From Candidatus Levyibacteriota bacterium (GTDB taxonomy: Bacteria > Patescibacteriota > Microgenomatia > Levybacterales > UBA12049), in assembly GCA_030651475.1 (NCBI GenBank), contig JAUSEW010000027.1, positions 109,614 to 173,613 of the forward strand: a DNA stretch of 64,000 nt. The letters are read 5' to 3'. The notes beneath the pieces were generated by a model. The model ran no database searches and had not been told where the DNA came from. It saw nothing but the letters and a program-made list of their open reading frames with translations. How positions within the stretch are numbered: the first letter of the stretch is position 1; every line of letters begins with the position of its first letter. Positions 2,580 to 23,966 of the stretch are shown in pieces. Both the position numbers and the translations under genes were made by a program.

Positions 2580-2581
2580 TC

Positions 2582-4523: not shown

Positions 4524-4528
4524 TAATT

Positions 4529-5125: not shown

Positions 5126-5131
5126 TTACCT

Positions 5132-5518
5132 ATGAATCCTTCCAGAGAACATCAAGATTTAATTAAGGCCCTTAAAAACCATTTTATACAAAGATTGGGC
5201 TTTACTATATTAAGCGTTGATCTTCCTGAATCTTTAGATAAGCCTTTTCAAATTGGCAGACACAGTCCCGATATTATCGCTAAGGATCAATTTGGAATTA
5301 TACAAATTGGAGAGGCTAAGGTAGGAGACAACATATCTTCTCCTGAGTCTGAAGAACAATTTAAGGATTTCTCTAATCAAGTAATGAGGGGAACAAATGT
5401 TCCAGTTCCGTTGCATATAATAATTTTTCAAAAAGATTATAATACTTTATTAACAAAATTAACAACAGTTGGTCTAAGTCAAAAAATAGGTACGAAAATT
5501 GTAATATGGACAATATAG
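5132..5518 (+). CDS. Hypothetical small protein with a possible PD-(D/E)xK nuclease-like motif (SPD...GEAK)
   Basis: 128-aa ORF packed tightly between the HNH and PIN genes. HSPDIIAKDQFGIIQIGEAKVG fits a [S/P]D-x(n)-E-x-K pattern. The fold assignment is speculative. Confidence 0.45.
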   Translation: MNPSREHQDLIKALKNHFIQRLGFTILSVDLPESLDKPFQIGRHSPDIIAKDQFGIIQIGEAKVGDNISSPESEEQFKDFSNQVMRGTNVPVPLHIIIFQKDYNTLLTKLTTVGLSQKIGTKIVIWTI

Positions 5519-6126: not shown

Positions 6127-6151
6127 TAGATAGGGCGCATGCGTTACGTAT

Positions 6152-6178
6152 ACACCTCGAAGGTGTAAGGCTATTTTC
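6152..6178 (+). terminator. Possible intrinsic terminator (ACACCT-CGA-AGGTGT hairpin then TATTTTC)
   Basis: A 6-bp stem with a 3-nt loop sits 26 nt after the PIN gene stop. A U-rich tract follows after 5 nt. Weak. Confidence 0.3.
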
Positions 6179-6356
6179 AAGAGAAGAAATAGACAAAATA
6201 GGACGACTTTATTAGCAAGGAGTTTTTGCTGCTATTGAATTATTTATTTATGGCTTCTTTTCTGCTATTATAGATTTGTGGATAACCTGATGGAAAAGAT
6301 TGTTTCTCTTTGCAAACGCCGAGCCGCCAAAGGCGAGCCTCGCCTTATTATTCAAT

Positions 6357-7712
6357 ATGGATCAAAAAAATAATAAACAAAACTTAATGGATAAAATTAC
6401 AGCTTTATGTAAGAGGCGGGGTTTTATTTATCCCGGAAGTGAAATCTACGGAGGATTGCAAGGCACTTGGGATTACGGGCCCCTTGGTACGCTTCTGAAA
6501 AAGAATCTAAAAGATATTTGGTGGAAAGACGCAGTTGAGAAAAGAGACGACATGGTGGGAGTTGACGCCGCAATTATGATGCATCCAAAAGCTTGGGAAG
6601 CTTCAGGACATGTGGAAGCATTTACAGATCCTTTGGTTGAATGCAAGATATGCCACGAACGTTTTAGAGCTGATGAGAAAGAAAAAGTTCTTGAGCATAT
6701 CAAAACCCATGATGGGAAAAAAGTTGACTGGACTAATCCGCAAAAGTTTAATTTATTGGTAAAAGCATATTTAGGAGTAATTGAAGGTAAGCAGTCGGAA
6801 TTATATCTGCGGGGAGAAATTACAAACGGAGCACAAGTGAATTTCAGAAATGTTTTAGATTCTACCAGAATAAAAATTCCTTTTGGTATAGCGCAAATAG
6901 GTAAAGCCTTTAGAAATGAAATAACGCCGGGGAATTTTACTTTTAGAAGCAGGGAGTTTGAGCAAATGGAAACCCAATATTACATAAAGCCCGACAAAAA
7001 AGAAGGAGAAAAATGGTTTGAATACTGGAAAGATAACAGAATGAATTTCTATCTTTCTTTGGGAATAAAAAAAGAAAACTTAAGATTTAGAGAACATAGG
7101 GAAGAAGAAAAAGCGCATTATGCGATAGCAGCAACAGATATAGAATATAACGCTCCGTTTGGGTGGTCGGAATTTATGGGCATACATAATAGGGGTGACT
7201 GGGATTTGTCAAGACACCAGAAATATTCGGGACAGAAAATGACATATAAAGATGAAGTAGCTGGAGAAGAATATGTTCCATGGGACATAGAAACATCAGC
7301 AGGAGTTGACAGATCAATATTATTTTTGCTAATTGATTCGTATGAAGAGGATGATCCTTCGACAGGCTCAGGACAAGGGAAGAGAGTGGTTTTGAAGCTT
7401 AATCCCAAGCTTGCTCCGTATAAAGCTGCGGTTTTTCCTCTTCTTGCCAATAAAGAAGATCTTGTAAAAACCGCCAAAGATGTTTATTATAGTCTCAAGA
7501 AAGATATCAATGGAATGGTTGCTTTTGACGCCAGGGGAAATATCGGAAAACGCTATTATTCCCAAGATGAAATCGGTACGCCATATTGCATAACAGTTGA
7601 TTTTCAAACACTTGAAGACGAAACAGTTACGGTTAGGAATAGAGATACGATGAAACAGGAAAGAATAAAAATAGAAAAACTCGCAGAATTCTTAAATCCA
7701 AAAATAGATTAA
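6357..7712 (+). CDS. glyQS: Glycine--tRNA ligase (class II, alpha2 GlyQS type)
   Basis: ITALCKRRGFIYPGSEIYGGLQGTWDYGPLG and downstream class II motifs. The start is taken at the ATG at 6357 inside the longer ORF. Confidence 0.9.
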   Translation: MDQKNNKQNLMDKITALCKRRGFIYPGSEIYGGLQGTWDYGPLGTLLKKNLKDIWWKDAVEKRDDMVGVDAAIMMHPKAWEASGHVEAFTDPLVECKICHERFRADEKEKVLEHIKTHDGKKVDWTNPQKFNLLVKAYLGVIEGKQSELYLRGEITNGAQVNFRNVLDSTRIKIPFGIAQIGKAFRNEITPGNFTFRSREFEQMETQYYIKPDKKEGEKWFEYWKDNRMNFYLSLGIKKENLRFREHREEEKAHYAIAATDIEYNAPFGWSEFMGIHNRGDWDLSRHQKYSGQKMTYKDEVAGEEYVPWDIETSAGVDRSILFLLIDSYEEDDPSTGSGQGKRVVLKLNPKLAPYKAAVFPLLANKEDLVKTAKDVYYSLKKDINGMVAFDARGNIGKRYYSQDEIGTPYCITVDFQTLEDETVTVRNRDTMKQERIKIEKLAEFLNPKID

Positions 7713-7721
7713 GAGTTTATA

Positions 7722-8033
7722 ATGAATATGGAAACCGCAAGGCGTCGTATACAGTTGGTTGTTTCAATAAATGGGACCAAAAGGACTGAACTTACAGGGA
7801 AAGGTTTGATGGTACAGGAGCTAGTTAGGATAGATTACTCTTTAAGAAAGCATGAAAGGCCATCGGTATCTTTTAAAATGTCGGATGACATGGTTCGTGC
7901 ATATTCCGAGAGAAGGGATGAATTGTATAAGCTTCTTGGATTACCCGAGAATCAAATTACCAGAGCAAAAATAATAGATGGTTACAGCGGAAAACTTTGG
8001 GAAATCGGTCATCCCCATTGGCATTTCAAATAA
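7722..8033 (+). CDS. Hypothetical protein (103 aa)
   Basis: ORF only. No recognisable motif. Confidence 0.35.
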   Translation: MNMETARRRIQLVVSINGTKRTELTGKGLMVQELVRIDYSLRKHERPSVSFKMSDDMVRAYSERRDELYKLLGLPENQITRAKIIDGYSGKLWEIGHPHWHFK

Positions 8034-8091
8034 AAATTATAAATATTTCCTTATTGACAAAATTATTGAAATTAGTACAATTATTACATAA

Positions 8092-8562
8092 GTGAAGAAT
8101 AAGAAGCTTATTGTTGTTCTGGGAGTTTCAATAGTGTTGGTTTTGGCTGGGGGAGGATATTTCCTGCTTTCAGGCAAGAATACAGCTCCTGCGCCAACTA
8201 CGAGTGCTACGTCACAGGTTCAGGACGTTTCGGAACAAGCTATTCCTACTCTTACTCCTTCGGATCTTGGTCTTTCTCTTACGGCCAACAGCAATACTAC
8301 CAAAGTCACAATGGTCCTAACCAAGACAAGCGATGTATCCACGATTGACTACGAACTTTCTTATACTGCAAAAGGAGACATTCCAAGGGGAATTATAGGC
8401 CAGGTTATTGTTAAGCCAGGTAAGTCTGTCAGTCAGGAAATTACACTTGGAACTTGCTCTGACGTTTGTCATTACGATCAAGATGTTACAGGAATTAATC
8501 TTGTTTTGAAGATTACGAAAACTAACGGTAAAACATATCAAGTAGAAAAAAGCCTCGACTAA
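8092..8562 (+). CDS. Hypothetical secreted/membrane-anchored protein (GTG start, N-terminal hydrophobic helix, Ser/Thr-rich linker)
   Basis: KLIVVLGVSIVLVLAGGGYFLL is a hydrophobic anchor or signal. A low-complexity linker and a beta-rich domain follow. Confidence 0.45.
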   Translation: MKNKKLIVVLGVSIVLVLAGGGYFLLSGKNTAPAPTTSATSQVQDVSEQAIPTLTPSDLGLSLTANSNTTKVTMVLTKTSDVSTIDYELSYTAKGDIPRGIIGQVIVKPGKSVSQEITLGTCSDVCHYDQDVTGINLVLKITKTNGKTYQVEKSLD

Positions 8563-8649
8563 CTTCATTTTATCTTTTTACCCCAGGCAAGTTTATATGG
8601 GTAGAGCCTCAACCATTAGTCGACACTAACGCGAGCCTATTTTGCTCTC

Positions 8650-8716
8650 TTGACAAGTGGGAAAAAGGAGTTCAAAATGGATTAAAGTGGGAAAAAGTGG
8701 GACAAAGTGGGACACA
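8650..8716 (+). promoter_or_regulatory. mraZ promoter/operator: TTGACA -35-like hexamer plus four GTGGG direct repeats on a 10-bp period (MraZ-box array)
   Basis: TTGACA at 8650-8655. GTGGG at 8657, 8687, 8697 and 8707, the last three in perfect 10-bp register (GTGGGAAAAA GTGGGACAAA GTGGGACACA), immediately 5' of the mraZ ATG at 8736. Confidence 0.55.
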
Positions 8717-8735
8717 AGGAAGGCAGGCGGAAAAT

Positions 8736-9182
8736 ATGCTCATAGGACAATATGAAGGAAAACTTGGAGAAAAAAATAGACTCGCATTTCCAAAAAGGCT
8801 TAGGGAGCTTTTGGGGAATAAATTAATTATTACATTAGGTTATGAAAACTCGCTTATTATCGTCTCGGAAGAAGGCTGGCAGGCATTGCTTGAAGGAACA
8901 GAGGGTAAGCCTTTTATTCAAAGGAGCGCAAGAGAGACTCAGCGATTCTTGCTCGGAGGAGCCAGTTTCGTTGAACTTGACGGTAAAGGAAGGTTTATTA
9001 TACCTAACTATCTTAGAGAATTTGCAAAAATTGAAAGCGAGGTCGTATTCCTAGGTTTGTCCAGATACGTAGAGCTGTGGGGAAAAGAAAATTGGGGCGT
9101 ATACAAAAAGAACCTTGAAAAAAACATAGATAAAATTTCGGCAAAGCTTATTGAAAATAGCAAAAAAGGTGAAAATGGATAG
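8736..9182 (+). CDS. mraZ: Transcriptional regulator MraZ
   Basis: MLIGQYEGKLGEKNRLAFPKRLRELLG and a duplicated MraZ-type fold. It is the first gene of the dcw cluster. Confidence 0.9.
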   Translation: MLIGQYEGKLGEKNRLAFPKRLRELLGNKLIITLGYENSLIIVSEEGWQALLEGTEGKPFIQRSARETQRFLLGGASFVELDGKGRFIIPNYLREFAKIESEVVFLGLSRYVELWGKENWGVYKKNLEKNIDKISAKLIENSKKGENG

Positions 9183-10074
9183 CTTTCATACGAGCGTACT
9201 TTTAAAAGAAATTATAAGCGGTTTAAATGTTCAAAAAAACAAGAACTATATTGACGCAACAATTGGAGGGGGAGGACATAGCTTTGAGATTTTGAGATTG
9301 GGTGGAATTGTTTTGGGAATTGACTGTGATAAAGACGCGATAGATTATGTAGGGGAAAATTGGAAATTAGAAAGCAAAAGATGCGGGATCCCGGAGAAAA
9401 ATTTGATTTTGGTAAAAGGAAACTTTAGGGATTTGGATAAAATTGCACATTTAAATAATTTTGACAAAATTTCGGGAATAATTTTTGACTTGGGGGTAAG
9501 CAGCCACCAGTTGGGAGCTGCACAAAGAGGTTTTAGTTTTCAAAAAGAGGGCCCATTGGATATGCGGATGGACCAAGATCTAAATCTTACAGCTAAAGAT
9601 TTTATTTACGCATTAACGAAAGGAGAATTATATGAATTATTTACTAAGCTGGGTGAAGAAAGCAATGCTAGGGAGTTTTCTAACCTTATTGTTATGGCCC
9701 GTGGAGTAAAACCGATTGAAACGACAAGAGATTTGGCGATGATCTTTGAAAAAATTCCCTCAAGAAGAGTTTGGGGAATTAACAGAGCAACGAAAATATT
9801 TCAGGCGTTGCGTATAGCTGTAAACGATGAGCTAAACGCTATCAGAGAAGCATTGCCCAAAGCAGTAAATATGCTTGAGGACGAGGGAAGAATTTTGGTA
9901 ATTTCGTTTCATTCGCTGGAAGATAGAATTGTAAAAAGAGCTTTTCTAGAATTTGAAGAAAAAAATATGGGAAAAATAATTACAAAAAAACCTATAACTC
10001 CGACAAAAGAAGAATTAGGAATAAATAGAAGAAGCCGGAGTGCCAAACTTAGAATTTTCGAAAGGAATATATGA
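9175..10074 (+). CDS. rsmH: 16S rRNA (cytosine1402-N4)-methyltransferase RsmH (MraW)
   Basis: MDSFHTSVLLKEI...YIDATIGGGGHS and DLGVSSHQL are RsmH motifs. Confidence 0.9.
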   Translation: MDSFHTSVLLKEIISGLNVQKNKNYIDATIGGGGHSFEILRLGGIVLGIDCDKDAIDYVGENWKLESKRCGIPEKNLILVKGNFRDLDKIAHLNNFDKISGIIFDLGVSSHQLGAAQRGFSFQKEGPLDMRMDQDLNLTAKDFIYALTKGELYELFTKLGEESNAREFSNLIVMARGVKPIETTRDLAMIFEKIPSRRVWGINRATKIFQALRIAVNDELNAIREALPKAVNMLEDEGRILVISFHSLEDRIVKRAFLEFEEKNMGKIITKKPITPTKEELGINRRSRSAKLRIFERNI

Positions 10075-10355
10075 AAAGATTTAAATTACTTATAACATTT
10101 TTGGTTTTGGTAATAGTTTTCTTATCAATCGTTCAGGTTGTTGTATCCAACAGGCTGTCAACGACAGGTCCGCTTTTTAGCAAGATAGAAGAGGAAACGA
10201 ATTTCTATAAAAGAGAGAATTTACTTCTTTCGGAACGGCTTTTAACGTCGTCATCTCTTAATAATATAGCGTTAAAAGCAGAAGCTTTAGGCTTCATAGA
10301 AGGAAAAACCAAGTTTATCGTTACAGCATCATTGCCATTGGCTCTTAGACAATAA
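10071..10355 (+). CDS. ftsL: FtsL-like cell division protein (small single-TM protein)
   Basis: 94 aa with an N-terminal TM helix. The assignment is positional, between rsmH and ftsI. Confidence 0.45.
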   Translation: MKRFKLLITFLVLVIVFLSIVQVVVSNRLSTTGPLFSKIEEETNFYKRENLLLSERLLTSSSLNNIALKAEALGFIEGKTKFIVTASLPLALRQ

Positions 10356-12034
10356 TGACTTGGCGATACCGTTTTATTTTTGCAATTTTTCTTTTCTTCT
10401 TCGGTTTAATAATTATCAGGTTGTTTTACTGGCAAGTTGTCAAAGCTCAAGAATTATCTGTTCTTGCGGAATATCAGTACAGCGGTATAGTGAAAATGCT
10501 GCCTAATCGTGGAGAAATACAGACATCCGATGACTTTCCAATAGCTGCCAATAAAGTTTCCTATCTTGTGTTTGTAAATCCTAAAGCAATAAAGGATAAA
10601 AGGAATATTACAAACGAGATATCTCCAATAATTAACGTAGATAAAGCTTCCATAAGTGCGTTTCTATCTTTTGATAAAGTTTGGGTTTCTTTGAAATCGG
10701 GCATTGACGATAAAACAAAAAAAAGTATTGAGGCATTGAATTTTACCGGAATTGGATTTGAGCAGCAATCTTCCCGTTTTTATCCGGAAGCATCTTTAGC
10801 AGCTCACCTTCTTGGATTTGTTGGAAAAAACGAAGCAGGAGGAGATAAAGGATATTTTGGACTTGAAGGATATTATGACAGACTTTTAAGAGGTAAGGAA
10901 GGATATGCGGTTCAGATACAAGATGCTTTAGGAAGGCCGATTTTGTCCAGAATGTCAGGAAATTTAGTTAAGGTTGACGGAAGCAGCATCAAGCTTAGCA
11001 TAGATAGGTCAATACAGTTTCTGGCAGAGCAAAAATTAAAAGAAGGCATAGAGATGTATGGAGCAAGCGGGGGAATGGTAGGGATTATGGATCCAAAAAC
11101 AGGAGGAATGCTTGCCATGGCTTCTTTCCCATCGTTTACACCTCAAGATTATCAAAAGTATTCGGAGGATTTGTACAAAAACCCTTTTATTACAAATACC
11201 TATGAACCGGGATCTACTTTTAAGCCTATGGTTATGTCGGCAGCTTTAGAAGAGGGACTGGTTAAACCGGATACGAAGTGTCCAGCCTGCAATGGGCCGG
11301 TTTCGGTCGGAGGATATGATCTGCACACATGGAATGATAAGTATTATAAGGACACTAATATGATTGACGTAATAAAACACTCCGACAATACGGGAATGGT
11401 TTTCGTGGCGCAGAAACTTGGAGTAGATAAGATGATTGATTATCTTACGAAGTTTGGTATAGGAAGTCTGACAAATATTGACCTTCAGGGTGAGGTATCG
11501 CCGAGTCTTAAAGCAAGAAACGCTTGGTATGCGGTTGATCTTGCTACAACAGGGTTTGGGCAGGGTATATCGGTGACGCCTATAGGGCTTTTGGATGCTT
11601 TTTCAGCAATTGCCAACGGAGGTAAACGTGTGGAGCCTCACGTGGTATCTCAAGTTCAATCTCCTGATGGAAAAATATCTAAAATACTTCCAAAAACCGT
11701 AGATACCCCTATTTCGGGAAAAACTGCCAAAATTATGACGGAAATGTTAGTTAATGCAGTTAATAATGGGGAGGCTTCGTGGGCGCGTCTTAAGGGGTAT
11801 AGAATCGCCGGAAAAACAGGTACGGCTTCAATTCCTGTCAAAGGCCACTACGATCCTACGAAAACTATAACTTCATTTATTGGTTTCGCGCCGGCAAATG
11901 ATCCTAAATTTGTCATGTTGGTTATTTTGGATAAGCCGACAACATCCATTTACGGAGCGGAAACAGCAGCTCCGGTATTTTTCGATATCGCAAAAGACCT
12001 CTTACTCTATTACGGCGTTCCCCCCAGCGAATAG
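10355..12034 (+). CDS. ftsI: Peptidoglycan D,D-transpeptidase FtsI (class B penicillin-binding protein)
   Basis: N-terminal TM helix. SxxK is present as GSTFKP, SxN as HSDNTG and KTG as AGKTGTA. Confidence 0.85.
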   Translation: MTWRYRFIFAIFLFFFGLIIIRLFYWQVVKAQELSVLAEYQYSGIVKMLPNRGEIQTSDDFPIAANKVSYLVFVNPKAIKDKRNITNEISPIINVDKASISAFLSFDKVWVSLKSGIDDKTKKSIEALNFTGIGFEQQSSRFYPEASLAAHLLGFVGKNEAGGDKGYFGLEGYYDRLLRGKEGYAVQIQDALGRPILSRMSGNLVKVDGSSIKLSIDRSIQFLAEQKLKEGIEMYGASGGMVGIMDPKTGGMLAMASFPSFTPQDYQKYSEDLYKNPFITNTYEPGSTFKPMVMSAALEEGLVKPDTKCPACNGPVSVGGYDLHTWNDKYYKDTNMIDVIKHSDNTGMVFVAQKLGVDKMIDYLTKFGIGSLTNIDLQGEVSPSLKARNAWYAVDLATTGFGQGISVTPIGLLDAFSAIANGGKRVEPHVVSQVQSPDGKISKILPKTVDTPISGKTAKIMTEMLVNAVNNGEASWARLKGYRIAGKTGTASIPVKGHYDPTKTITSFIGFAPANDPKFVMLVILDKPTTSIYGAETAAPVFFDIAKDLLLYYGVPPSE

Positions 12035-12058
12035 TTTATGGTACAATAAGTTTATAAA

Positions 12059-12490
12059 ATGGCAGAAGCTCAAAGTCCTGATGGCCAAGCAAGTAGAGAA
12101 CCAGTAGAGAAATCTCTAGCGCATGTTTCGGATGCAGATATTATTGGAGAATTATCAAGAAGACTTCATGCCAATCCTCAATTAGATCCTACTGTCTTAA
12201 AAAGTTTCGATGAAGTTACGGCAAAAATAAAGGAAGGATTAAAACCAGGAGAGCCTAAAGCAGATTTAAAACCCACTACGGAGCCAGGCAACGTAGAGGC
12301 TCAAGCTACATCCGAGTCGGAAGGAAAAAAATGGGCAAAAATTATACGAGAAAAAGGCGCAGGTGGCCTGTTGCAGGGAAAGTTCAAAAACAGCTGGGGT
12401 TATTATGATGAAAGTGGTATTTTTCATGGCATTGAGCCAATCGGGCAGAGCAGTTCGGAAACAGCAATAGGCTACACAAGCGCCGGGTAG
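12059..12490 (+). CDS. Hypothetical low-complexity protein inserted in the dcw cluster
   Basis: ORF only. Acidic and Pro/Lys-rich, no TM helix. Confidence 0.35.
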   Translation: MAEAQSPDGQASREPVEKSLAHVSDADIIGELSRRLHANPQLDPTVLKSFDEVTAKIKEGLKPGEPKADLKPTTEPGNVEAQATSESEGKKWAKIIREKGAGGLLQGKFKNSWGYYDESGIFHGIEPIGQSSSETAIGYTSAG

Positions 12491-12628
12491 TTTGGGAAGC
12501 CTGAAATTCCCATAGGAAGCGAGTCGATAATAACATATTCAAGAGCTACTTTCTATAACGATACTGCAGGATCCCCACCTCAAGATACCTCTTCAAATTT
12601 TTTGGTCGTTGGGGATACAGGAAACAGT

Positions 12629-13063
12629 ATGGAAAACAGGAATCGTTTTAAGGGTTGGAAAACGTTTAGATATTTAACTTGGTACGACATTAGTCAAGCT
12701 GGAGGTCAAAATCCTCCCGATTTTAAATTTTTAGATTTTAATTTTACATTACCTCCAGAGGAATCTTCTCAATTTAGTGAGGCTATAAATAGGAGTCCTG
12801 ACTTAGTTGAAGATGCATTTCAGAATGTTTACCCTGGCCTTTTCGGAGAAAAAGGAATTAAGCGTCTTATCGTTAAGAAATTGACTATCACTGATAATAT
12901 AATTACCAAAAAAATTGAAGACCGCGAACGAAATGAGTTTTACAGAAAACAGGATCCGAAAGAAAATAGGCCAAAAGCCTACAATACAGTTCTAGAATCA
13001 GCTAGGACTCGGGAGGTAGATTTTTCGAAACCTGTTGGCGAGATTGTTCCGCAAACCCCATAG
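12629..13063 (+). CDS. Hypothetical protein (start taken at the ATG at 12629; the ORF track begins at TTG 12602)
   Basis: ORF only. Confidence 0.35.
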   Translation: MENRNRFKGWKTFRYLTWYDISQAGGQNPPDFKFLDFNFTLPPEESSQFSEAINRSPDLVEDAFQNVYPGLFGEKGIKRLIVKKLTITDNIITKKIEDRERNEFYRKQDPKENRPKAYNTVLESARTREVDFSKPVGEIVPQTP

Positions 13064-13113: not shown

Positions 13114-14301
13114 ATGTGGCAAGATTTAAAAAATATTTATCATCTCCTCGTAGCTTTTTTGGCTAATATTTATTATGGTTTCCCTTCCAGAAAATTCATT
13201 GTAATTGGAGTAACCGGAACAGACGGGAAAACCACTACAACAAGTCTAATTTATCATATACTTCGTACTGCCGGAAAAAAAGCTTTGATGATAAGTTCCG
13301 TAGGCGCAATTATTGACGGTAAAGAATATGATGTTGGTTTTCATGTCACAACTCCATCTTCTTTTGCCTTGCAGAAATTTTTAAAACAAGCTGCGGACGC
13401 AGGACTAAAGTATTTGGTTCTTGAAACAACTTCGCATGCTTTGGACCAATACAGGGTTTTTGGAATACATTTCAATGTTGGCGTTTTAACCAACATTACC
13501 CATGAACATTTGGATTACCATAAAACGTATGACGAATACGTTAAAACAAAGGCAAAACTTTTAAATATGAGTAAAGTTGCAATTGTAAATAGAGACGATA
13601 AGTCATTCGTTTTGCTAAGTTCAAAGTTCAAAGTTAAAAGTTCAAAGTTAAAAACGTATGGAATGGGTAAGAATGCAGATGTAAATCCGTATAATTTCCC
13701 TTTTTCAACAACTCTTTTTGGAGAGTTTAATAAATATAATATTTTGGCTGCGGTTTCCGTATGTAAAGCTTTAGATATTGAAAACAGCAAGATTAGAAAT
13801 GGTATAAAAAGTTTTAAACCCCCTAAGGGCAGGGAAGATATAGTTTATAAAAATAGCTTTTCGGTGATGATAGATTTTGCCCATACGCCTAATGCCTTTG
13901 AAGTGGTTTTGAAGGATTTGCGTGCCAATATCAAAGGCAGAATTATTCATGTTTTTGGTTCTGCAGGATCAAGAGATGCAACAAAACGTCCTTTAATGGG
14001 AAAAATATCTTCAAAATATGCGGATATACTTATTTTAACAGCAGAAGATCCAAGGAGAGAGCCAGTTGAAAAAATTATAAATGAGATTGCGTCAGGAATT
14101 ACAGACGCAAAGGAGGTTCTAAGAATTTATGATAGAAAAAAAGCAATTTTTGAAGCCATTAAAATGGCGAAAAAGGGAGATTTTGTTTTAGTAACAGGTA
14201 AAAGCCATGAAAAATCCATGAATTACGGACATAGTGAACAGCCGTGGGACGAATACGAAACAGTAAAGAGCGCTTTGGAAAATATTAAACATGAAAATTA
14301 A
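13114..14301 (+). CDS. murE: Mur ligase family protein, most likely MurE (UDP-MurNAc-L-Ala-D-Glu--diamino acid ligase); short form
   Basis: P-loop IGVTGTDGKTTTT. DFAHTPNAFE resembles the MurE DxAHTP motif. It sits ahead of murC in the cluster. Confidence 0.6.
   Translation: MWQDLKNIYHLLVAFLANIYYGFPSRKFIVIGVTGTDGKTTTTSLIYHILRTAGKKALMISSVGAIIDGKEYDVGFHVTTPSSFALQKFLKQAADAGLKYLVLETTSHALDQYRVFGIHFNVGVLTNITHEHLDYHKTYDEYVKTKAKLLNMSKVAIVNRDDKSFVLLSSKFKVKSSKLKTYGMGKNADVNPYNFPFSTTLFGEFNKYNILAAVSVCKALDIENSKIRNGIKSFKPPKGREDIVYKNSFSVMIDFAHTPNAFEVVLKDLRANIKGRIIHVFGSAGSRDATKRPLMGKISSKYADILILTAEDPRREPVEKIINEIASGITDAKEVLRIYDRKKAIFEAIKMAKKGDFVLVTGKSHEKSMNYGHSEQPWDEYETVKSALENIKHEN
13617..13651 (+). repeat. Five tandem copies of the heptamer AAGTT(C/A)A inside the murE-like coding sequence
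   Basis: AAGTTCA AAGTTCA AAGTTAA AAGTTCA AAGTTAA, in frame, encoding SSKFKVKSSKLK. Confidence 0.8.
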
Positions 14302-17062: not shown

Positions 17063-18871
17063 ATGCAAGCAGTAATTTTGGCAGCAGGACAATCCAGCAG
17101 AATGTATCCGTTCGAAAACGAAATTCATAAATCCATGATTAGAATCATGGGAAAACCAATTCTTTATTACACAATAGAGGCACTTAAAAGATCAAAGATT
17201 TTTGATTTGATAATTGTTACAAGTGGAAAAAGTAAAACGGAGCAGTATTTTGGAGACGGAAAGAAATTGGGAGTATCGATTCAATACGTTTTTCAGGAAA
17301 AACCTGAAGGAGCAGGAGATGCTTTACTTCTTGCCGGTAAATATATAACCGGTGATTTTTTTCTTCTTAATGCATCTCACGTTGAAATTGATACGCTTAC
17401 GGAAGATTTGTTAAACGCGAAAGATAAAGATACCCAAGCAGTTCTTCTTGCAAGGAAAAAAACAACTGGCGTTATTCAGGGAGTTCTCAAATTTAAAGGC
17501 AGAAAAGTAGAGGAGATAGTTGAAAAACCAAAAATTGGAGAAGAGCCATCAAGTATGTGTGTTGTCGGCGTATATCTTTTCGAGAAAGAGTTTTTAAAAG
17601 CTCTTAATAATACGCCAAAAGAACATTATCAGCTTGAAAAGGCAATTTCCTCTTACGCCAAAAATAATTCCGTTGTGTTTTTGAAAACGTCAAAGGAAAC
17701 GGTTACGTTGAGATATCCATGGGATCTTTTGGGGATAAAAAATTACCTGTTTAAAAGCCTAAGAAGATCCATAAGCGTAAAATCAAAGATTGCAAAAACA
17801 GCAGAAATTATCGGAGAAGTTATGATTCAGGATAACGTAATTATAATGGAAGGAGTCCGCATAAAGGGACCGTGTTTTATCGGAAAAGGTACGGTAGTTG
17901 GAAATAATGCTTTGTTACGGAATGGAGTTAATATTGGAGAAAATTGTTTGGTAGGCAGTTTTATGGAAGTAAAAAACACTATTATTATGGATGAGTCAAC
18001 AACTCATTCGGGTTTTATTGGCGACTCGGTTATCGGTGAGAAGTGTAAGATAGCAGCGCAGTTTTGTACAGGAAACGTGAGGCTTGATAGAGGCATAATA
18101 AAAACTGTTGTTAAGGGAGAAAGCATAGAGACAGGAGTTAAGTTCCTTGGAGTATTTGTTGGAGCGGGATCAAATATCGGAATTAAAGTTTCCGCAATGC
18201 CCGGAATTATCATTGGAAGAAATGCAACCATTGGTCCTTCAACCGTAGTAATGAAGAATGTCCCAAGCGATACTAAATATTATACAAAATTTCAGGAAAT
18301 TATAAGCAAGAAAAATGTCCTTCAGCAAGTCTTCGACTCCGAGGTCTTCGACCGTGAGGCTCAGACCGAATCGGCTCAGACTCGAGGAGCTCAGGATTTT
18401 CAGAAATCAATAGTTCTTTTCGATATTGACTACACGCTTTTCGATACTCGCAAATTTAAGGATTCACAGCTTCAAGATTATAATATTTATGAAGAAGTTA
18501 TGGGGATATTAATGCAGCTTTCGGGTTTAGTCAATTTAGGAATTTTTTCTAAAGGAGAAACTGATTTTCAAAAAACCAAACTGGAAAAAACAGGAATGAT
18601 GCAGTTTTTTAAAGAAAATAATGTTCATATCTTTAACGACAAAGACGCCAATTTGATAAATGTTTTAGAAAAATACAAAGATTCTAAGCTGTTTCTTGTT
18701 GATGATAAATTGGGCATATTGTATTCTGCCAAAAAACATATGCCACAAGTTTTTACCATTTGGGTCAAAAGAGGTCCATTTGCCAAAGCTCAAAAGCCAA
18801 TTGAAGGATTTTCGCCCGATGAGCAAGTTGAAAATCTCTCAGAAATTGTTAGAATAGTAAGGTCAAATTAG
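17063..18871 (+). CDS. GlmU-like sugar-1-phosphate nucleotidyltransferase with a left-handed beta-helix, fused to a C-terminal HAD-superfamily hydrolase/phosphomutase-like domain
   Basis: N-terminus MQAVILAAGQSSRMYP is a nucleotidyltransferase motif. Hexapeptide repeats sit in the middle (IGEKCKIAAQF..VGAGSNIG). The C-terminal HAD motifs are DIDYTLFD (DxDxT) and LVDDK. Confidence 0.7.
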   Translation: MQAVILAAGQSSRMYPFENEIHKSMIRIMGKPILYYTIEALKRSKIFDLIIVTSGKSKTEQYFGDGKKLGVSIQYVFQEKPEGAGDALLLAGKYITGDFFLLNASHVEIDTLTEDLLNAKDKDTQAVLLARKKTTGVIQGVLKFKGRKVEEIVEKPKIGEEPSSMCVVGVYLFEKEFLKALNNTPKEHYQLEKAISSYAKNNSVVFLKTSKETVTLRYPWDLLGIKNYLFKSLRRSISVKSKIAKTAEIIGEVMIQDNVIIMEGVRIKGPCFIGKGTVVGNNALLRNGVNIGENCLVGSFMEVKNTIIMDESTTHSGFIGDSVIGEKCKIAAQFCTGNVRLDRGIIKTVVKGESIETGVKFLGVFVGAGSNIGIKVSAMPGIIIGRNATIGPSTVVMKNVPSDTKYYTKFQEIISKKNVLQQVFDSEVFDREAQTESAQTRGAQDFQKSIVLFDIDYTLFDTRKFKDSQLQDYNIYEEVMGILMQLSGLVNLGIFSKGETDFQKTKLEKTGMMQFFKENNVHIFNDKDANLINVLEKYKDSKLFLVDDKLGILYSAKKHMPQVFTIWVKRGPFAKAQKPIEGFSPDEQVENLSEIVRIVRSN

Positions 18872-18876: not shown

Positions 18877-20640
18877 ATGTGTGGAATATTTGGATACGTT
18901 GGGAATAAAAATGACGCTGCAGATATTGTCCTTGAGGGATTAAAGCTGTTGGAATACAGAGGTTATGACTCATGGGGAGTGGCGGTAAAAGTTCGGAAAA
19001 AGCTTTCGGTAGATAAGCATATAGGCAAAATAGGAGATGCGCAAGTAAACCTTCCTCAAAGCGTTTTGGGAATTGGACACACAAGGTGGGCAACTCATGG
19101 CGGAGTAACTGCTGCTAATGCCCATCCCCATATGGATTGCACGAAAACAATAGCAGTTGTCCATAATGGAATTGTTGAAAATTTTCAGGAATTAAAAACA
19201 GAACTTATTGAAAAAGGTCATAAATTTATTTCGGAAACAGATACAGAAATTATCCCTCATTTGATAGAAGAAAATCTGAAAAAAGAAGGTTTTGCTTCGT
19301 CTGTCAGAGATGCCTTCAATAGCCTTAAGGGTCTAAATGCAGTAGTTGTAGCGTATGCTCCATCTAGAGAAATAGTTGCGGCAAAAACAGGATCGCCTTT
19401 GGTTGTAGGTATTGGCAAAAATGAATTATTTGTTGCATCGGATGCATCAGCAATAGTTAAACATACAAAAAAAGTTATTTTTCTTGAAGATAATCAAATG
19501 GTTATTTTGGGAAAAAGATTAAAGCTAATAAATCTACCTGGAGGTAAAGAAATAAAACCAACAATAAATAAAATTAACTGGAAATTTGAGCATGGAGAAA
19601 AAGGGAAATTTAAACACTTTTTACTTAAAGAAATTAATGATCAGCGCACCACAATTATAGACGCTGTTACGCAGAACGAAAAAAAATTGTTCGAGTTTGC
19701 AAACCTTATTAGGAATTCGTTTGATACCTATATCTCTGGTTGTGGGACAGCGGGGCATGCTTGTAGAATGGCAACGTATATATTCTCAACTATTGCAAAA
19801 AAACATATAAATTTCGCTATTGGATCAGAATTTTCATATTATGAAGATTTTTTAACAGATAAGTCATTATTAATTGTCGCATCGCAAAGCGGAGAGACAA
19901 TAGATCTGGTAGAGGCAGTAAGCGCTGCAAGACGGCACAAAAGTAAAGTAACGGCATTGGTAAATGTGATTGGTTCAACGTTATATAGGCAATGTGATCT
20001 TGTACTTCCCTTGCGAGCCGGAGTTGAGAGATGTGTATTGTCTACAAAATCCTTTACCAGTAAGCTTGCAATTTTCTATCTTTTGGCGTTCATATTAAAA
20101 GGTGAATATAGCGAGGGTAGAAAAAAAATAATAAAAACAGCACGAGCCGTAGGAGAGCTTTTGGATGACAAAGAATTTAATCAGCAATTAAAGAATGTTG
20201 CAGATGAAATCTATAAAACAAAAGATATATATATTCTTGGTCGTGGTTTTAGCTTTCCTTTGGCATTGGAAGCTGCGCATAAAATTAAAGAAGCAAGTTA
20301 TATACATGCGGAAGGATTTGCTGGGGGTGAGCCAAAACATTGCGAAATCTCTCTTGTTTCAGAAGGTACTCCAACAATTGTTTTTGTACCAAATGATGAA
20401 ACTAAATCAGCAATAATTAGCAATGCAACAGAATTTAAGGCACGAGGTGCATATATTATTGGCATTGGGCCTGAGAAGCAAGCGGTTTTCGACGAATGGA
20501 TTCAAGTTCCCGATCTGGGAGTGACATCATCTATTATTAATATAATTCCCGCTCAACTATTAGCTTACTATTTAGCTTTAAAGAAGGGTAACGATCCAGA
20601 CAAGCCAAGGAATTTAGCCAAAAGTGTTACTGTGAAATAA
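18877..20640 (+). CDS. glmS: Glutamine--fructose-6-phosphate aminotransferase GlmS
   Basis: MCGIFGYVG gives the N-terminal nucleophile Cys. Two SIS domains follow. Confidence 0.9.
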   Translation: MCGIFGYVGNKNDAADIVLEGLKLLEYRGYDSWGVAVKVRKKLSVDKHIGKIGDAQVNLPQSVLGIGHTRWATHGGVTAANAHPHMDCTKTIAVVHNGIVENFQELKTELIEKGHKFISETDTEIIPHLIEENLKKEGFASSVRDAFNSLKGLNAVVVAYAPSREIVAAKTGSPLVVGIGKNELFVASDASAIVKHTKKVIFLEDNQMVILGKRLKLINLPGGKEIKPTINKINWKFEHGEKGKFKHFLLKEINDQRTTIIDAVTQNEKKLFEFANLIRNSFDTYISGCGTAGHACRMATYIFSTIAKKHINFAIGSEFSYYEDFLTDKSLLIVASQSGETIDLVEAVSAARRHKSKVTALVNVIGSTLYRQCDLVLPLRAGVERCVLSTKSFTSKLAIFYLLAFILKGEYSEGRKKIIKTARAVGELLDDKEFNQQLKNVADEIYKTKDIYILGRGFSFPLALEAAHKIKEASYIHAEGFAGGEPKHCEISLVSEGTPTIVFVPNDETKSAIISNATEFKARGAYIIGIGPEKQAVFDEWIQVPDLGVTSSIINIIPAQLLAYYLALKKGNDPDKPRNLAKSVTVK

Positions 20641-23600
20641 TACCCTTATCGATTAGCTGATATACAATCGTTTTACATTCATCATCCGTGAGAGCATACT
20701 TGTCCAATACAGTTATTCTCCCTTTATTATTTGATACCCTTTTTGCATGGCTCAAGATATTTATAAGTTGAGGAATAGTTAATTTTAGTCGGGTTAAATT
20801 TAAATCAATTCCCGCTTCGTTAATAGTATGTGCTATATGTGTGGTGTCTTTTTGCTGTAAATGTGTCATAATCAATGTGCCCAATGCCATCACTTCTCCA
20901 TGACGAACCTTATCTGGAAATAATTCTAAAGCAGCCGTGCTAAAAATTTTCTCGGAACCACTCGCTGGATGAGAACCGATACCTCTTACGAGAGTACAGT
21001 ATGAAAGCCATGTAAGAGACTTTGCTAATTCTTCTATAGATTGAGTATAAATAAAATTATCCGTAGCGCTTATCGATTTTAAAAGCGATAACGCTCTAGC
21101 TTCAATGGCGCTGCTGTATCTTGTTTGACCATTCAGACTTGCTGTTTTCCAGTCTTCCAAAGCAGAGGCAACAGCTATTATATCTCCATATCCCAATCTA
21201 TTCAAATCTTGATCCTGTTTAGATAGGAATGTCGTATCTATCATAACAAAATCTGGTAAACGTCCAGTAATAGTAGCATCTACCCCAACTGTTTTTAGAA
21301 CTCCTAATGGATGTATGTAGGGAGAGGAGAAGGTGTTGGTTGATAATATTGTAGGAATCAATACCATTAGGCAATTTTTATTATATGCGGCGTATTTTGT
21401 TAAGTCCATCACGGTTCCACTGCCCAAACCGACTATAATCTTCTCATCGTTTGTCAGTACTTTTTCCAAATCTTCTTTTTTGGGTTCATGAGCAATAAAT
21501 ATACACTTTTCCTTTATTGCTTGAGCAATATTGGGATAATTTTCCTCAACTTTTCTGAAAGCATCTTGGTCTGTTACTACTCTAAATTCAACGCCATCAA
21601 CTAATATTTTTTCTAAAACTCTTTGTATCCCATTTTCACTAATCGCAATATTGCTAGATATTCTATCTGCAAAATGTTCCCACGAAAATAAATCATCGAC
21701 TCTATGATTATGTTGAATATCTAATTCTAGACAAACTGTTTCGATAAATTCTATTTCATCCTCAATAGTCTTAGTTAATTCTTCGAGCTTGGGTAATGTT
21801 TCTCTCATTGCGTCTCGAGTTGTCTCTAAAATGTTTTCACCTTGACCATATAAAGATAGATGATTTTGAATAAATGTAAATAAAATTTTGTTTATTTTCT
21901 TTAAAGACGCATCGTAAGTTGCTTGTAGATGATATTTTCCTTCACGTACAATAATTGTAGGTTTTGTTTTCAATAGACTTGTCATTTTGTGTATAATTTC
22001 AGGCATTTTAGTTAAGTGAAGATATGCCATATTACTGTCAAAATCTTCAAGTTTTTTGTTTTCTTTATATGCAATATTTAGGGCGTCTGCTAATTTTCCT
22101 ACTTTTGGATCTGCAAATTGATAGTCTTGAGGATCTGTAGTGCAATTAAAATAAGGAGGAAGTAGCCCCTTTTGTTGTAAGCGGTATTTGTCTGTGGTCC
22201 CTGGGAATATATCTAATTTTTGTACCATTACTGAAAAATTGTATAATTCATCTGAGTCTTTAAGGAATTGAAAATTTTGAGATGCGTCCTCGACGGTCAT
22301 AAGTGGATGCCAAGCGATAAAGCCAAGTTGCAAGGATACCCCTTCTTCTCTAGCTCTTTGAACGAATTTTTTGTAATTGTCTGCCTGAGAAAATTTATTC
22401 ATAGTGTTAAGCATTCCTTGACTGGCAGATTCAAATCCAACAAAAGCCATTATCATCCCGTTTTGGTGTAGCTTTCTAAACAATCTGTCTCCCTCTTCGT
22501 TTAGCGGAATACTGTCAGGCCGAAGAAGAGGGCGAAATTGCATATTCAGGTCTCTTTGTTCAAGCTCATCACAGAAAGCACTTATTCTTTCTAATCCATC
22601 TCTGCCTGGTTTGATAAAAATATCATCATTAAAGTAGACTGTTTCTACTCCGTATTTTTTTAAATATTCCATTTCGTCAACAATTTGACGAACATGACGA
22701 GGATTGTAACGCCGATCATATAATTTTACGCTTGTGCAAAATGAGCAGTTACCGATACATCCTTCGCTCGTACTCATTCTAGCGGTTTTAGGGCTTTTTA
22801 CTAGAACATTTTTGGGGTATGTATCGTTAAGCTGGACGTGTTGGATTTGAGGAAACTTAGATAGGGGTATTGCGCGCCATGCATTTACAATTTTGTTTGG
22901 CTTTAAACCATTGTGCGTCACTATGTCAGGAATATCATTTAGGGATTTGCCTCTACGTAAAGCATCTATCAGGAGTGGAAACGATAAATCCCCTTTTCCA
23001 ACGATTACGGCATCAACATTCTTAAAATCTGGTTGTTCAAATATCCTCTCATCTTGAACTGCTAATGATATATGATGACCTCCCATAACCACAAACGTAT
23101 CGGGATTTATATCCTTGCTTGCTTGGGCTACTTTCAGTCCATCTCTAACGGTCATTGCAGTTGCGTTTATGCCAACCACACGTGTTTTGGAGGAGGCAAT
23201 GTGTTCGGCTATATCTTCAAGACTTAAGTTTTTCTGTTCGGCATTCAATATGGTTGTTCCGTAGCCTGCTTGACTTAAGGCTACATAAAGTTCTTCAAAG
23301 CCAAGATACTCTTTTCCTGCTTGAGATAGTACGCTTGCTCTTTTTTCAAAAGTTCTTGGGAAAACGAGAGCAACAGGATACTCTGCTTTTGGCGTTGCAT
23401 CATCGGGTTTTCTGTTTACGTATTCCATCACGGAATTATAAGGATCAAATAGTTGCCATTCTTCTGTAATACCTGAATAAACACGTAGAATGTCTTTTGT
23501 TCTACGCCATGTAGGAAAGGTCGCGTCTAAATGAGCAACATACCTCCTACACAAAAGTTCCCTAGTGGAGCGTTGGGCAATGGCTGTAGGAAGTTTTGCC

Positions 23601-23800
23601 TGTAAGCTTTGTACCAGTACGTCAAAATCTATTTCCTTGACCCTTTTTGTATTAGTTGTTAAGTTTTCTAAAATTTTCGATACATAACTATCGGGACACA
23701 ATAAACGTAGATTGCCATAAGGAAATTCAATATTATGCTTGGATAAAGCTTCTTTAGGGTAAAAAGTTTCATGTTCACCCTTTTCTTTTCCTACTGCCAT
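20627..23800 (-). CDS. Fusion protein: N-terminal extension, cobalamin-binding-domain radical SAM enzyme (class B type), and a C-terminal DHQS / glycerol(-1-phosphate) dehydrogenase / Fe-ADH-superfamily domain
   Basis: B12-binding-like VVGINATAMTVRDGL...VVMGGHH. Radical-SAM cluster CIGNCSFC (CxxxCxxC). C-terminal IIVGLGSGTVMDLTKYAA (GGGSxxDxxK-type), LIPTILSTNTFSSP and RHGEVMALG are typical of the DHQS/GlyDH/G1PDH fold. Single uninterrupted 1057-aa ORF. Confidence 0.7.
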   Translation of the reverse strand: MAVGKEKGEHETFYPKEALSKHNIEFPYGNLRLLCPDSYVSKILENLTTNTKRVKEIDFDVLVQSLQAKLPTAIAQRSTRELLCRRYVAHLDATFPTWRRTKDILRVYSGITEEWQLFDPYNSVMEYVNRKPDDATPKAEYPVALVFPRTFEKRASVLSQAGKEYLGFEELYVALSQAGYGTTILNAEQKNLSLEDIAEHIASSKTRVVGINATAMTVRDGLKVAQASKDINPDTFVVMGGHHISLAVQDERIFEQPDFKNVDAVIVGKGDLSFPLLIDALRRGKSLNDIPDIVTHNGLKPNKIVNAWRAIPLSKFPQIQHVQLNDTYPKNVLVKSPKTARMSTSEGCIGNCSFCTSVKLYDRRYNPRHVRQIVDEMEYLKKYGVETVYFNDDIFIKPGRDGLERISAFCDELEQRDLNMQFRPLLRPDSIPLNEEGDRLFRKLHQNGMIMAFVGFESASQGMLNTMNKFSQADNYKKFVQRAREEGVSLQLGFIAWHPLMTVEDASQNFQFLKDSDELYNFSVMVQKLDIFPGTTDKYRLQQKGLLPPYFNCTTDPQDYQFADPKVGKLADALNIAYKENKKLEDFDSNMAYLHLTKMPEIIHKMTSLLKTKPTIIVREGKYHLQATYDASLKKINKILFTFIQNHLSLYGQGENILETTRDAMRETLPKLEELTKTIEDEIEFIETVCLELDIQHNHRVDDLFSWEHFADRISSNIAISENGIQRVLEKILVDGVEFRVVTDQDAFRKVEENYPNIAQAIKEKCIFIAHEPKKEDLEKVLTNDEKIIVGLGSGTVMDLTKYAAYNKNCLMVLIPTILSTNTFSSPYIHPLGVLKTVGVDATITGRLPDFVMIDTTFLSKQDQDLNRLGYGDIIAVASALEDWKTASLNGQTRYSSAIEARALSLLKSISATDNFIYTQSIEELAKSLTWLSYCTLVRGIGSHPASGSEKIFSTAALELFPDKVRHGEVMALGTLIMTHLQQKDTTHIAHTINEAGIDLNLTRLKLTIPQLINILSHAKRVSNNKGRITVLDKYALTDDECKTIVYQLIDKGIISQ

Positions 23801-23866
23801 ATATTGATTCTTTTATCTTTTAAGGCTAGTATTCTATACGCGTATCATACAGCTTTGTGATTTAAT

Positions 23867-23882
23867 GTCAAGAATTCTTGAC
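23867..23882. promoter_or_regulatory. Perfect 16-bp palindrome GTCAAGAATTCTTGAC in the divergent intergenic region
   Basis: Seen directly. It lies between the radical-SAM fusion gene (minus strand) and mraY (plus strand). Confidence 0.4.
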
Positions 23883-23966
23883 GAATCTTATATTTAGCTC
23901 AAAAGTTTTTATTCCATATCATTTGAAAACTCGCAAAATCCGTGACGGTGAAGTAGCCTCTTTTAT

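Follow-up and report, generated by a model that had tools for sequence, protein, structure and literature searches.

Cobalamin-dependent enzymes of the radical S-adenosylmethionine (SAM) class carry out C-H chemistry that ranks among the hardest known, and to our knowledge only a handful of them have been characterized. In OxsB, TokK (PDB 7kdx), and TsrM (6wtf), a B12-binding domain leads into a barrel carrying the CxxxCxxC motif and then into a helical C-terminal part, and none of the three has a dehydrogenase-like domain fused to it. Here, we describe a gene from a 64,000-nucleotide stretch of contig JAUSEW010000027.1 (positions 109,614 to 173,613; hereafter the window), from a Candidatus Levyibacteriota bacterium of the Candidate Phyla Radiation (CPR/Patescibacteria), that encodes the same succession of parts but continues into a domain of the glycerol-1-phosphate dehydrogenase (G1PDH) family. 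This architecture is real, conserved, and extremely rare, unites two well-known enzyme superfamilies, and is undescribed in the literature searched, which held no account of such a fusion, nor of B12 radical SAM enzymes in CPR bacteria.

Described relatives of the C-terminal part are EgsA (5fb3, 4rgq) and Bacillus subtilis AraM (9h4x), which resemble residues 700 to 1057 over the full length in fold and sequence and share with them the NAD(P) glycine loop, an Asp metal ligand, and the second of two His ligands. Unlike EgsA and AraM, the window's domain carries Lys in place of the first His, is fused behind a radical SAM module, and has no lipid genes using glycerol 1-phosphate (G1P) downstream. 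Phosphonate pathways pair a reductase of the iron-containing alcohol dehydrogenase (Fe-ADH) superfamily with a B12 radical SAM methyltransferase (FomC/Fom3 and PhpC/PhpK), so that both superfamilies work on small phosph(on)ate alcohols; reductases of the FomC/PhpC type are separate proteins that belong to PF00465 and not to the G1PDH branch. The PhpK family is the second-best radical SAM match of the window protein (E 4.6e-22), and neither the window nor any fusion-bearing locus contains a gene for phosphoenolpyruvate (PEP) mutase or phosphonopyruvate decarboxylase. AprD4, the 1,2-diol dehydratase of the apramycin pathway, has a similar N-terminal domain but is not known to depend on cobalamin. 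It matches the fold of residues about 150 to 650 (template-modeling (TM) score 0.66 to 0.68, normalized to AprD4), and its NCBIfam model gives 25 bits against a cut-off of 500. Together with the NADPH reductase AprD3, this dehydratase brings about the C3'-deoxygenation of paromamine's glucosamine ring (PMC5461906), a radical SAM step and an NAD(P)H-dependent carbonyl reduction following one another on a glucosamine-derived ring. AprD4 and AprD3 are two proteins, unlike the window fusion, and the parallel is, by analogy, one of shared logic and not of membership.

The gene is one uninterrupted open reading frame (ORF) of 1057 codons plus a stop codon, as seen in both the ORF list and the translation. 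Its product (P0001) is 100% identical to an NCBI protein from a metagenome-assembled genome (MAG) of Candidatus Levybacteria, whose sole annotation is 'iron-containing alcohol dehydrogenase'. The protein has five parts: an N-terminal domain, a B12-binding Rossmann domain, a radical SAM core, a three-helix bundle, and a G1PDH-family domain.

20627 to 23800, minus strand: whole fusion gene, 1057 aa, radical SAM plus G1PDH-like
23381 to 23800, minus strand: N-terminal orphan domain, residues 1 to 140, predicted all-helical
22901 to 23308, minus strand: Rossmann-type B12-binding domain, residues about 165 to 300 (Pfam PF02310 and AlphaFold2 model)
22121 to 22789, minus strand: radical SAM core, residues about 338 to 560 (Pfam PF04055)
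22736 to 22759, minus strand: CxxxCxxC [4Fe-4S]/SAM motif CIGNCSFC, residues 348 to 355 (C348, C352, C355)
21728 to 22108, minus strand: three long helices, residues 565 to 691, end of the radical SAM module, where unfused homologues end
20630 to 21703, minus strand: G1PDH-family (Fe-ADH_2) domain, residues 700 to 1057 (NCBIfam, PDB, and Foldseek)

Structure was predicted with AlphaFold2 from 26 sequences (mean predicted local distance difference test score (pLDDT) 80, predicted TM score 0.79). The N-terminal domain, modeled with low confidence over residues about 1 to 130 (pLDDT 27 to 65), has no Pfam or PDB match and is kept inside the family only (P0002, P0004 to P0006, P0062, and, upstream of a run of N, contig L001). 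In the B12-binding domain, Pfam PF02310 covers residues 167 to 276 (44.3 bits against a cut-off of 32.1, E 1.9e-11), the model alternates strands and helices (pLDDT 80 to 92), and Foldseek returns OxsB, TokK, and TsrM. Pfam PF04055 covers residues 342 to 490 (33 bits, cut-off 29.5) of the radical SAM core, which is modeled as a barrel-like succession of strands and helices, and C348, C352, and C355 are invariant in all six full-length family members. A CxxxCxxC motif lying within a predicted partial TIM barrel places the protein within the superfamily of radical SAM enzymes, and the predicted Rossmann B12 domain N-terminal to that core would place it in class B. The bundle that follows (helices 582 to 612, 616 to 648, and 657 to 691, all with pLDDT > 90) matches nothing in Pfam or the PDB. 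For the C-terminal domain (pLDDT > 90), the Pfam Fe-ADH_2 model aligns with residues 738 to 860 (51 bits, cut-off 28) and the NCBIfam G1PDH model PRK00843 with residues 727 to 1046 (profile positions 26 to 344 of 350, E 7.7e-34), though at 117 bits the latter does not reach its equivalog cut-off of 413; the match to the G1PDH structure 5fb3 has E 9e-21 in sequence and a Foldseek TM score of 0.82 normalized to 5fb3. Pfam and NCBIfam thereby bear out the original prediction, made from the sequence, of a single ORF joining a B12/radical SAM enzyme to a dehydrogenase-like domain, and the motifs it had pointed to are all present, as CIGNCSFC, GLGSGTVMDLTK, PTILSTNTFSSP, and RHGE. Its N-terminal region of roughly 200 aa has to be shortened, to about 140 to 165 aa ahead of the B12 domain.

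Among known structures, OxsB (5ul2 to 5ul4) has the same four-part order as residues 1 to 700 (N-terminal domain, B12 Rossmann fold, radical SAM barrel, C-terminal helices) and is the best Foldseek match, with E 1.6e-15 over 627 aligned columns at 16% identity, TM scores of 0.34 and 0.47, and a root-mean-square deviation of 9 A. TsrM, TokK, and AprD4 are the other matches of these 700 residues; across OxsB, TokK, and TsrM the Foldseek E-values run from 1.6e-15 to 1e-11 and the identities from 15 to 17%, and by sequence the solved class B structures are matched with E 4e-6 or worse, in the core only. No named B12 radical SAM family (HpnR, PhpK, HpnJ, BchE, ApyD, BzaD, ladderane radical SAM, and others) reaches its NCBIfam cut-off: HpnR scores 92 bits against 650, PhpK 78 against 600, HpnJ 72 against 578, and the ladderane radical SAM model 69 against 360. 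Indeed, every NCBIfam equivalog scores far under its cut-off, and neither a curated family nor a close PDB relative was found for the fusion, which agrees with the earlier statement that the architecture matches no characterized enzyme.

Besides the window, four distinct contigs carry this fusion, at 40 to 84% identity; a further copy (L091) is cut by the contig end and looks to come from the same organism as L090. Continuous fusion ORFs are found on L006 (P0002, the counterpart of the window protein, 84% identical), L001 (P0003, 50% identical), and L090 (1009 aa, 50% identical), and P0009 is a fragment that starts inside the linker (40% identical); in L001 the N-terminal domain of P0003 is encoded just upstream, separated only by a scaffold run of N. 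These ORFs come from an NCBI MAG, Logan SRR22387912, ENA ERZ28564079, and JGI Ga0066639 and Ga0210057. We calculated the ratio of nonsynonymous to synonymous substitution rates (dN/dS; Nei-Gojobori) for each domain between the window gene and its counterpart on L006, and obtained 0.24 for the N-terminal domain, 0.12 for the B12 domain, 0.10 for the radical SAM core (the strongest constraint of all parts), 0.33 for the helical linker, and 0.28 for the C-terminal domain. Purifying selection acts on every part of the protein, in a single reading frame. That a frameshift or a chimeric contig made one ORF out of two ordinary neighboring genes, an explanation that could draw on the occurrence of the radical SAM part as a separate protein of 662 to 698 aa in some genomes, has negligible probability: the ORF is continuous in independent assemblies of different projects across this range of identity (the frameshift check called for at the outset finds the fusion again on L006, L001, L090, L091, and the fragment P0009), the junction region aligns without gaps among homologues, and the single-frame selection extends over all parts. 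We therefore reject a frameshift or chimera.

Relatives are few, and in some 15 billion proteins the family counts about ten sequences. HMMER, run exhaustively on 1.84 billion cluster representatives, returned 24,082 matches, of which only P0003, P0005, P0009, and the fragments P0033 and P0062 belong to the same family. No member occurs among 185,579 GTDB species representatives, where the best match is 32% identical, and the fusion was not found in viral contigs. The next radical SAM relatives are uncharacterized B12 enzymes of 500 to 580 aa (about 32% identity), and the next relatives of the C-terminal domain are proteins of 366 to 432 aa (about 33% identity). Within the family, P0004, P0005, and P0006 are unfused forms (662 to 698 aa) that stop where the C-terminal domain begins, at about residue 700. 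The fused P0001 and P0002 are closest to the unfused P0004 and P0005 (62 to 65% identity), while P0003 and L090, a fused pair, and the unfused P0006 each show about 50% identity to all else; it follows that the fused state arose or disappeared on more than one occasion.

The active site of the C-terminal domain was placed by alignment to the Methanocaldococcus jannaschii G1PDH chain 4rgq, in which the Asp and the two His stand at chain positions 181, 259, and 280 and, after removal of a 33-residue tag, at Asp148, His226, and His247; we take these to be the Zn ligands of the M. jannaschii (Mj) enzyme, consistent with the 33-residue offset in 4rgq. In glycerol dehydrogenases, zinc is bound via one Asp and two His (PMC5125639).

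21395 to 21430, minus strand: glycine-rich dinucleotide loop GLGSGTVMDLTK, residues 791 to 802, aligned with GIGGGRPLDMAK of 5fb3
21182 to 21193, minus strand: GYGD, residues 870 to 873, with D873 at the Asp metal-ligand position (Mj Asp148)
20948 to 20962, minus strand: SGSEK, residues 947 to 951, with K951 at the first His ligand position (Mj His226)
20894 to 20905, minus strand: RHGE, residues 966 to 969, with H967 at the second His ligand position (Mj His247)

The glycine loop is kept among relatives as G.G.G...D..K, the PT..S..SP motif (PTILSTNTFSSP) lies at residues 816 to 827, and both motifs are retained together with D873 and H967 across 40 to 84% identity. The first His position carries Lys in P0001, P0002, P0003, P0009, and L090, and His in 34 of 34 other relatives examined, including the closest free-standing clade and P0156, a protein described below. 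By alignment, then, the Asp/His/His metal site of G1PDH appears altered, with K951 in place of His226. Sequence comparison puts the domain in the G1PDH branch of the 3-dehydroquinate synthase (DHQS)/Fe-ADH superfamily, and it is not a canonical G1PDH, because it scores 117 against 413 bits and lacks one defining metal ligand. Of the DHQS/glycerol dehydrogenase/G1PDH likeness first proposed, the G1PDH/glycerol dehydrogenase side stands and the DHQS side falls: PF01761 gives E 0.19 (11.8 bits, cut-off 24.2) and there is no aroB match, and we rejected a DHQS or cyclitol synthase identity. Likewise, the nucleotide loop and two of the metal ligands withstand close alignment and the first His does not. 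Since the maleylacetate reductases form a metal-free yet active subfamily of the same superfamily (PMC5125639), the change from His to Lys is no proof of inactivity, and the invariance of K951 looks more like a functional replacement than decay.

Relatives of this domain are found elsewhere, in one case fused to a B12 radical SAM enzyme and in another encoded near one. P0156 (1014 aa; NCBI assembly GCA_964570585.1) joins a G1PDH-like domain (residues 75 to 426) to a B12 radical SAM enzyme (464 to 881) in the opposite order to the window fusion. Its halves are distant (about 28% identity in the radical SAM part, 57 bits in the C-domain comparison) and it has kept the His ligand. The closest free-standing relatives of the C-terminal domain come from DPANN archaea (Nanoarchaeota, for example P0059, and Woesearchaeota) and two MAGs labeled Methanosarcinales, and form a separate DPANN-type clade with the motif PTSL.THVYASPKIH at about 33% identity. 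Three of their loci (L011 to L013) have a common core that runs from an RpiB-Rpe fusion through an orphan and the G1PDH-like gene to a SAM methyltransferase. L011 (Nanoarchaeota MAG JBDRFR010000011.1, positions 1 to 11843) begins with a cytidylyltransferase, a cytidylyltransferase-PEP mutase fusion (Fom1-like), phosphonopyruvate decarboxylase, an Fe-ADH, and a nucleotidyltransferase, and continues with the RpiB-Rpe fusion, the orphan, the G1PDH-like gene (P0059), the SAM methyltransferase, and a 488-aa B12 radical SAM enzyme, two genes from the G1PDH-like gene. To judge from its gene content and scores (PEP mutase 412 bits, phosphonopyruvate decarboxylase 448 bits), L011 is a genuine phosphonate cluster. 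When 80 G1PDH-like GTDB loci were scanned for B12 radical SAM genes, phmmer, given the query half, detected none, and a 120-sequence profile detected L011 and two weak matches; the association of the two superfamilies is therefore suggestive and not general.

Other combinations were met with in these searches. The cassettes of L012 and L013 (about 4600 to 13000 in each) add a hexapeptide acyltransferase and a CDP-alcohol phosphatidyltransferase to the core, L012 also a Wzx-like flippase; they look like synthesis of a CDP-alditol-type surface polymer, in which the G1PDH-like protein perhaps acts as a ketose-phosphate reductase. P0081 (604 aa) combines a G1PDH-like domain with a P-loop kinase resembling 2-phosphoglycerate kinase, P0182 with HTH domains, and P0183 with a DIT1_PvcA domain; P0184 is an 883-aa G1PDH-like protein of Omnitrophota whose other domains have no Pfam match on record, and P0043 joins a B12 radical SAM enzyme to a Bud32-like kinase region.

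The fusion gene sits in the division and cell wall (dcw) cluster, as had been noted, convergent with glmS and separating murA, the glmU-like gene, and glmS from mraY, ftsW, and murG. On the plus strand the order is mraZ, mraW, ftsI, two small orphans, murE, murC, murA, the glmU-like gene, and glmS; then comes the fusion gene on the minus strand, followed by mraY, ftsW, murG, ftsA, and ftsZ.

18877 to 20640, plus strand: glmS (NCBIfam glmS, 611 bits), convergent with the fusion gene
23844 to 23871, minus strand: promoter-like TTGACA-16-TATGAT, 44 nt upstream of the fusion gene's start codon

At their 3' ends, glmS and the fusion gene share 14 nt. The promoter-like site agrees with 11 of 12 consensus positions, a consensus match alone. 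No riboswitch or other RNA lies near the gene (Rfam gives only a tRNA at 42358), and flanking repeats that might mark an insertion are short and at chance level. In four of six distinct neighborhoods glmS is the immediate neighbor, in two orientations: convergent in the window, L006, and L001, and in tandem downstream of the unfused P0004 in L005. L001 further holds murB, murL, three Mur ligases, a glmU-like gene, and a NagB-like Glucosamine_iso gene; an Acyl_transf_3 gene precedes the unfused P0006; L090 has a HAD hydrolase downstream and a 328-aa orphan upstream; and a distant radical SAM relative, P0181, adjoins a Polysacc_deac_2 gene and a LysM/Amidase_2 gene. Genes of PEP mutase, lipid, or RiPP (ribosomally synthesized and post-translationally modified peptide) type are absent from the window and the family loci.

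Between the window and the Logan contig L006, nucleotide identity (20607 to 23900 compared) is 80 to 94% over the whole gene and about 100 nt upstream, the promoter-like site falling in a roughly 90%-identical block, and drops to 55 to 62% just past the gene's 3' end, inside glmS. The fusion or radical SAM protein is generally better conserved than GlmS.

Window and L006: fusion protein 84%, GlmS 52% identical
Window and L005: radical SAM protein 65%, GlmS 52% identical
Window and L001: fusion protein 50%, GlmS 41% identical

The discordance between P0001/P0002 and GlmS suggests a recent, gene-specific horizontal exchange or recombination, which is a lead, given that the L006 flank is only 1 kb long.

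An orphan gene of 328 to 345 aa lies directly upstream of the fusion in L001 (8519 to 9556), L090 (177 to 1163), and L091 (553 to 1539). Its products in L001 and L090 are 41% identical to each other and have no Pfam or PDB match, its stop codon in L090 overlaps the start of the fusion, and it marks the 50%-identity clade and is not in the window. A 168-aa gene downstream of P0006 also has no Pfam or PDB match.

We tentatively favor, at a little short of even weight, the reading that this is a genuine bifunctional CPR enzyme that performs a radical and an NAD(P)-dependent redox step in succession on a phosphorylated sugar or polyol destined for the cell envelope. Residues 1 to 700 would form a cobalamin-type (class B) radical SAM module, and residues 700 to 1057 an NAD(P)-binding domain of the G1PDH/polyol-phosphate dehydrogenase family with a clade-specific invariant Lys. 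In a first step, the radical module would functionalize a C-H bond (by methylation or by dehydration/rearrangement) of the phosphorylated substrate; in a second, the fused domain would follow with a carbonyl/alcohol redox step on the same intermediate, and the product would enter the hexosamine/cell-envelope branch. Three documented systems pair their enzymes in a comparable way: AprD4 with AprD3 (PMC5461906), OxsB with the alcohol dehydrogenase that its aldehyde product needs (PMC13331322), and the reductases with the B12 radical SAM methyltransferases of the phosphonate pathways. Because glmS, glmU, and murA lie nearby, fructose 6-phosphate, glucosamine 6-phosphate, and compounds derived from UDP-N-acetylglucosamine are the obvious candidates. 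What the data show are the domain make-up, the conserved motifs of catalysis, the recurring fusion, its purifying selection, its neighborhood, and its rarity; cobalamin use, the class of substrate, the order of the steps, and the envelope link are what we infer from the sequences. Chemistry on sugars had been proposed before, and it stays plausible on the basis of the neighbors (glmS, the glmU-like, NagB-like, and Acyl_transf_3 genes) and not of family membership; of the two more specific suggestions made then, cyclitol chemistry has no sequence support, the C-terminal domain falling in the G1PDH/Fe-ADH_2 branch, and glycerol-phosphate lipid-backbone chemistry no support from context. A narrower form of our reading, which we think unlikely in its full detail, has the enzyme combine the cobalamin/radical SAM C-H step with a Lys-assisted, possibly metal-independent NAD(P) redox step and so make a new modified hexosamine or polyol phosphate (C-methylated, deoxygenated, or rearranged) for peptidoglycan or another CPR envelope polymer.

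That nature has fused the radical enzyme to a dehydrogenase domain of the NAD(P) type limits its reaction to a radical step coupled with carbonyl/alcohol redox, and both partners are supplied by one expressible protein. CPR bacteria have a minimal metabolism and, as far as we know, an essentially unknown envelope chemistry. With its place in the dcw cluster next to glmS in such a bacterium, the gene thus points to an undescribed envelope precursor. The invariant change from His to Lys offers, at the metal site, a way toward new catalysis in the G1PDH/Fe-ADH superfamily, and if the narrower reading with a Lys-assisted redox step is true, the cell wall would gain a new building block and the G1PDH fold a new class of reaction. 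The architecture is of interest to radical SAM enzymology and CPR envelope biology alike, its significance being limited by the extreme rarity of the family in public data.

Several observations weigh against this two-step proposal. The adjacency to glmS is absent in L090 and L002 to L004, and where present it could be partly inherited synteny within one lineage. We know of no CPR bacteria that make cobalamin, so the cofactor would need to be scavenged, and no cobalamin transporter was seen in the window. All scores to named radical SAM families are far under their cut-offs, so that the reaction could be methylation or of another type. The radical module can evidently work unfused, since P0004, P0005, and P0006 have neither the C-terminal domain nor such a gene adjoining. 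The loss of the first His could mean that the C-terminal domain is no dehydrogenase at all. Of the pairings elsewhere, P0156 is one observation of an uncharacterized protein on one 6.3-kb contig, and a strong B12 radical SAM match lies near one of the four closest free-standing loci and near none of the 76 others.

In a first alternative, the C-terminal domain would be a G1PDH remnant without catalytic activity that serves as a binding, regulatory, or scaffolding module (holding NAD(P)H or a sugar phosphate, say, or aiding oligomerization), and the radical SAM part would do all the chemistry. We give it a low probability. Lys replaces the first His ligand in every fusion member, the domain was lost or never gained in P0004 to P0006 with no replacement gene adjoining, and its dN/dS of 0.28 exceeds that of the radical SAM core about threefold; however, this ratio is still well below 1, the Lys is itself positively conserved, the glycine loop, the PT..S..SP motif, D873, and H967 persist over the family's whole range of identity, and active metal-free members of the superfamily exist (PMC5125639). 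A role in lipid synthesis is quite improbable. On this view, sn-glycerol-1-phosphate would be the product of the C-terminal domain, with the radical SAM module acting on an ether or isoprenoid lipid to give lipid chemistry of archaeal or hopanoid/ladderane type, as the best family and fold matches of the C-terminal domain to G1PDH and the weak radical SAM matches to HpnR, HpnJ, and the ladderane-associated lipid enzyme might suggest. Yet the G1PDH model scores 117 of the required 413 bits and the lipid radical SAM models 69 to 92 of 360 to 650, the canonical Zn site is altered, and the neighbors are murein and hexosamine genes. Genes for G1P lipids (GGGPS/PcrB, UbiA-type prenyltransferase, CDP-archaeol synthase) were found neither in the 64-kb window, where most ORFs of at least 120 aa were scanned, nor among the called genes of L001 to L009 and L090, and we regard the canonical G1PDH/lipid role as disfavored on account of the sub-threshold score, the altered metal site, and this lack of lipid genes.

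The resemblance to OxsB raises one further alternative, an enzyme that rearranges a nucleoside or nucleotide and has a built-in aldehyde reductase, for an antimetabolite of the oxetanocin type. OxsB is the top structural match and shares the layout of the first 700 residues, the aldehyde that it makes needs a separate alcohol dehydrogenase in its own pathway (PMC13331322), and the sharp identity boundary against L006 suggests mobility between genomes, as seen in accessory genes. We nevertheless hold this to be very improbable, given the low similarity (16% identity, with the TM scores and 9-A deviation quoted above), the lack of an OxsA-like HD-domain partner gene in any neighborhood, and the embedding of the gene in core cell-wall genes and not in a secondary-metabolite cluster; on the first two counts, the locus does not qualify as an OxsB-type system.

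Several other features of the window deserve mention. The glmU-like gene (17063 to 18871, plus strand, 602 aa) extends about 190 residues past the archaeal-type GlmU model, with a HAD motif I (VLFDIDYTLFDT) and a match to the PDB hypothetical protein 2p11 (E 4e-7) in the added part, which may represent a HAD phosphatase or mutase of the hexosamine pathway, fused to the glmU-like protein. The murE ORF (13114 to 14301, plus strand, 395 aa) aligns with the MurE model from position 71 only, and the two orphan ORFs before it (12059 to 12490 and 12602 to 13063, plus strand), which have no Pfam or PDB match, could be its diverged or split N-terminal region or small ftsL-like genes. Outside the dcw cluster, a second gene of the FtsW/RodA/SpoVE family (38392 to 39471, minus strand) adjoins an isoleucyl/valyl-type tRNA synthetase gene, and an N6/N4 DNA methyltransferase gene directly followed by an HNH endonuclease gene (3684 to 5125, plus strand) resembles a restriction-modification pair. 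A gene for ParB is found at 36856 to 37680, and the tRNA at 42358 to 42429 borders a large cluster for envelope glycan or polysaccharide biosynthesis (42431 to 63831, G+C content 28 to 32%), with several GT2 and GT4 glycosyltransferases, PMT_2 and YfhO/PTPS-related membrane proteins, a gene of the NDP-hexose C-methyltransferase type (48988 to 50247), and a Wzx-like flippase (56916 to 58154).

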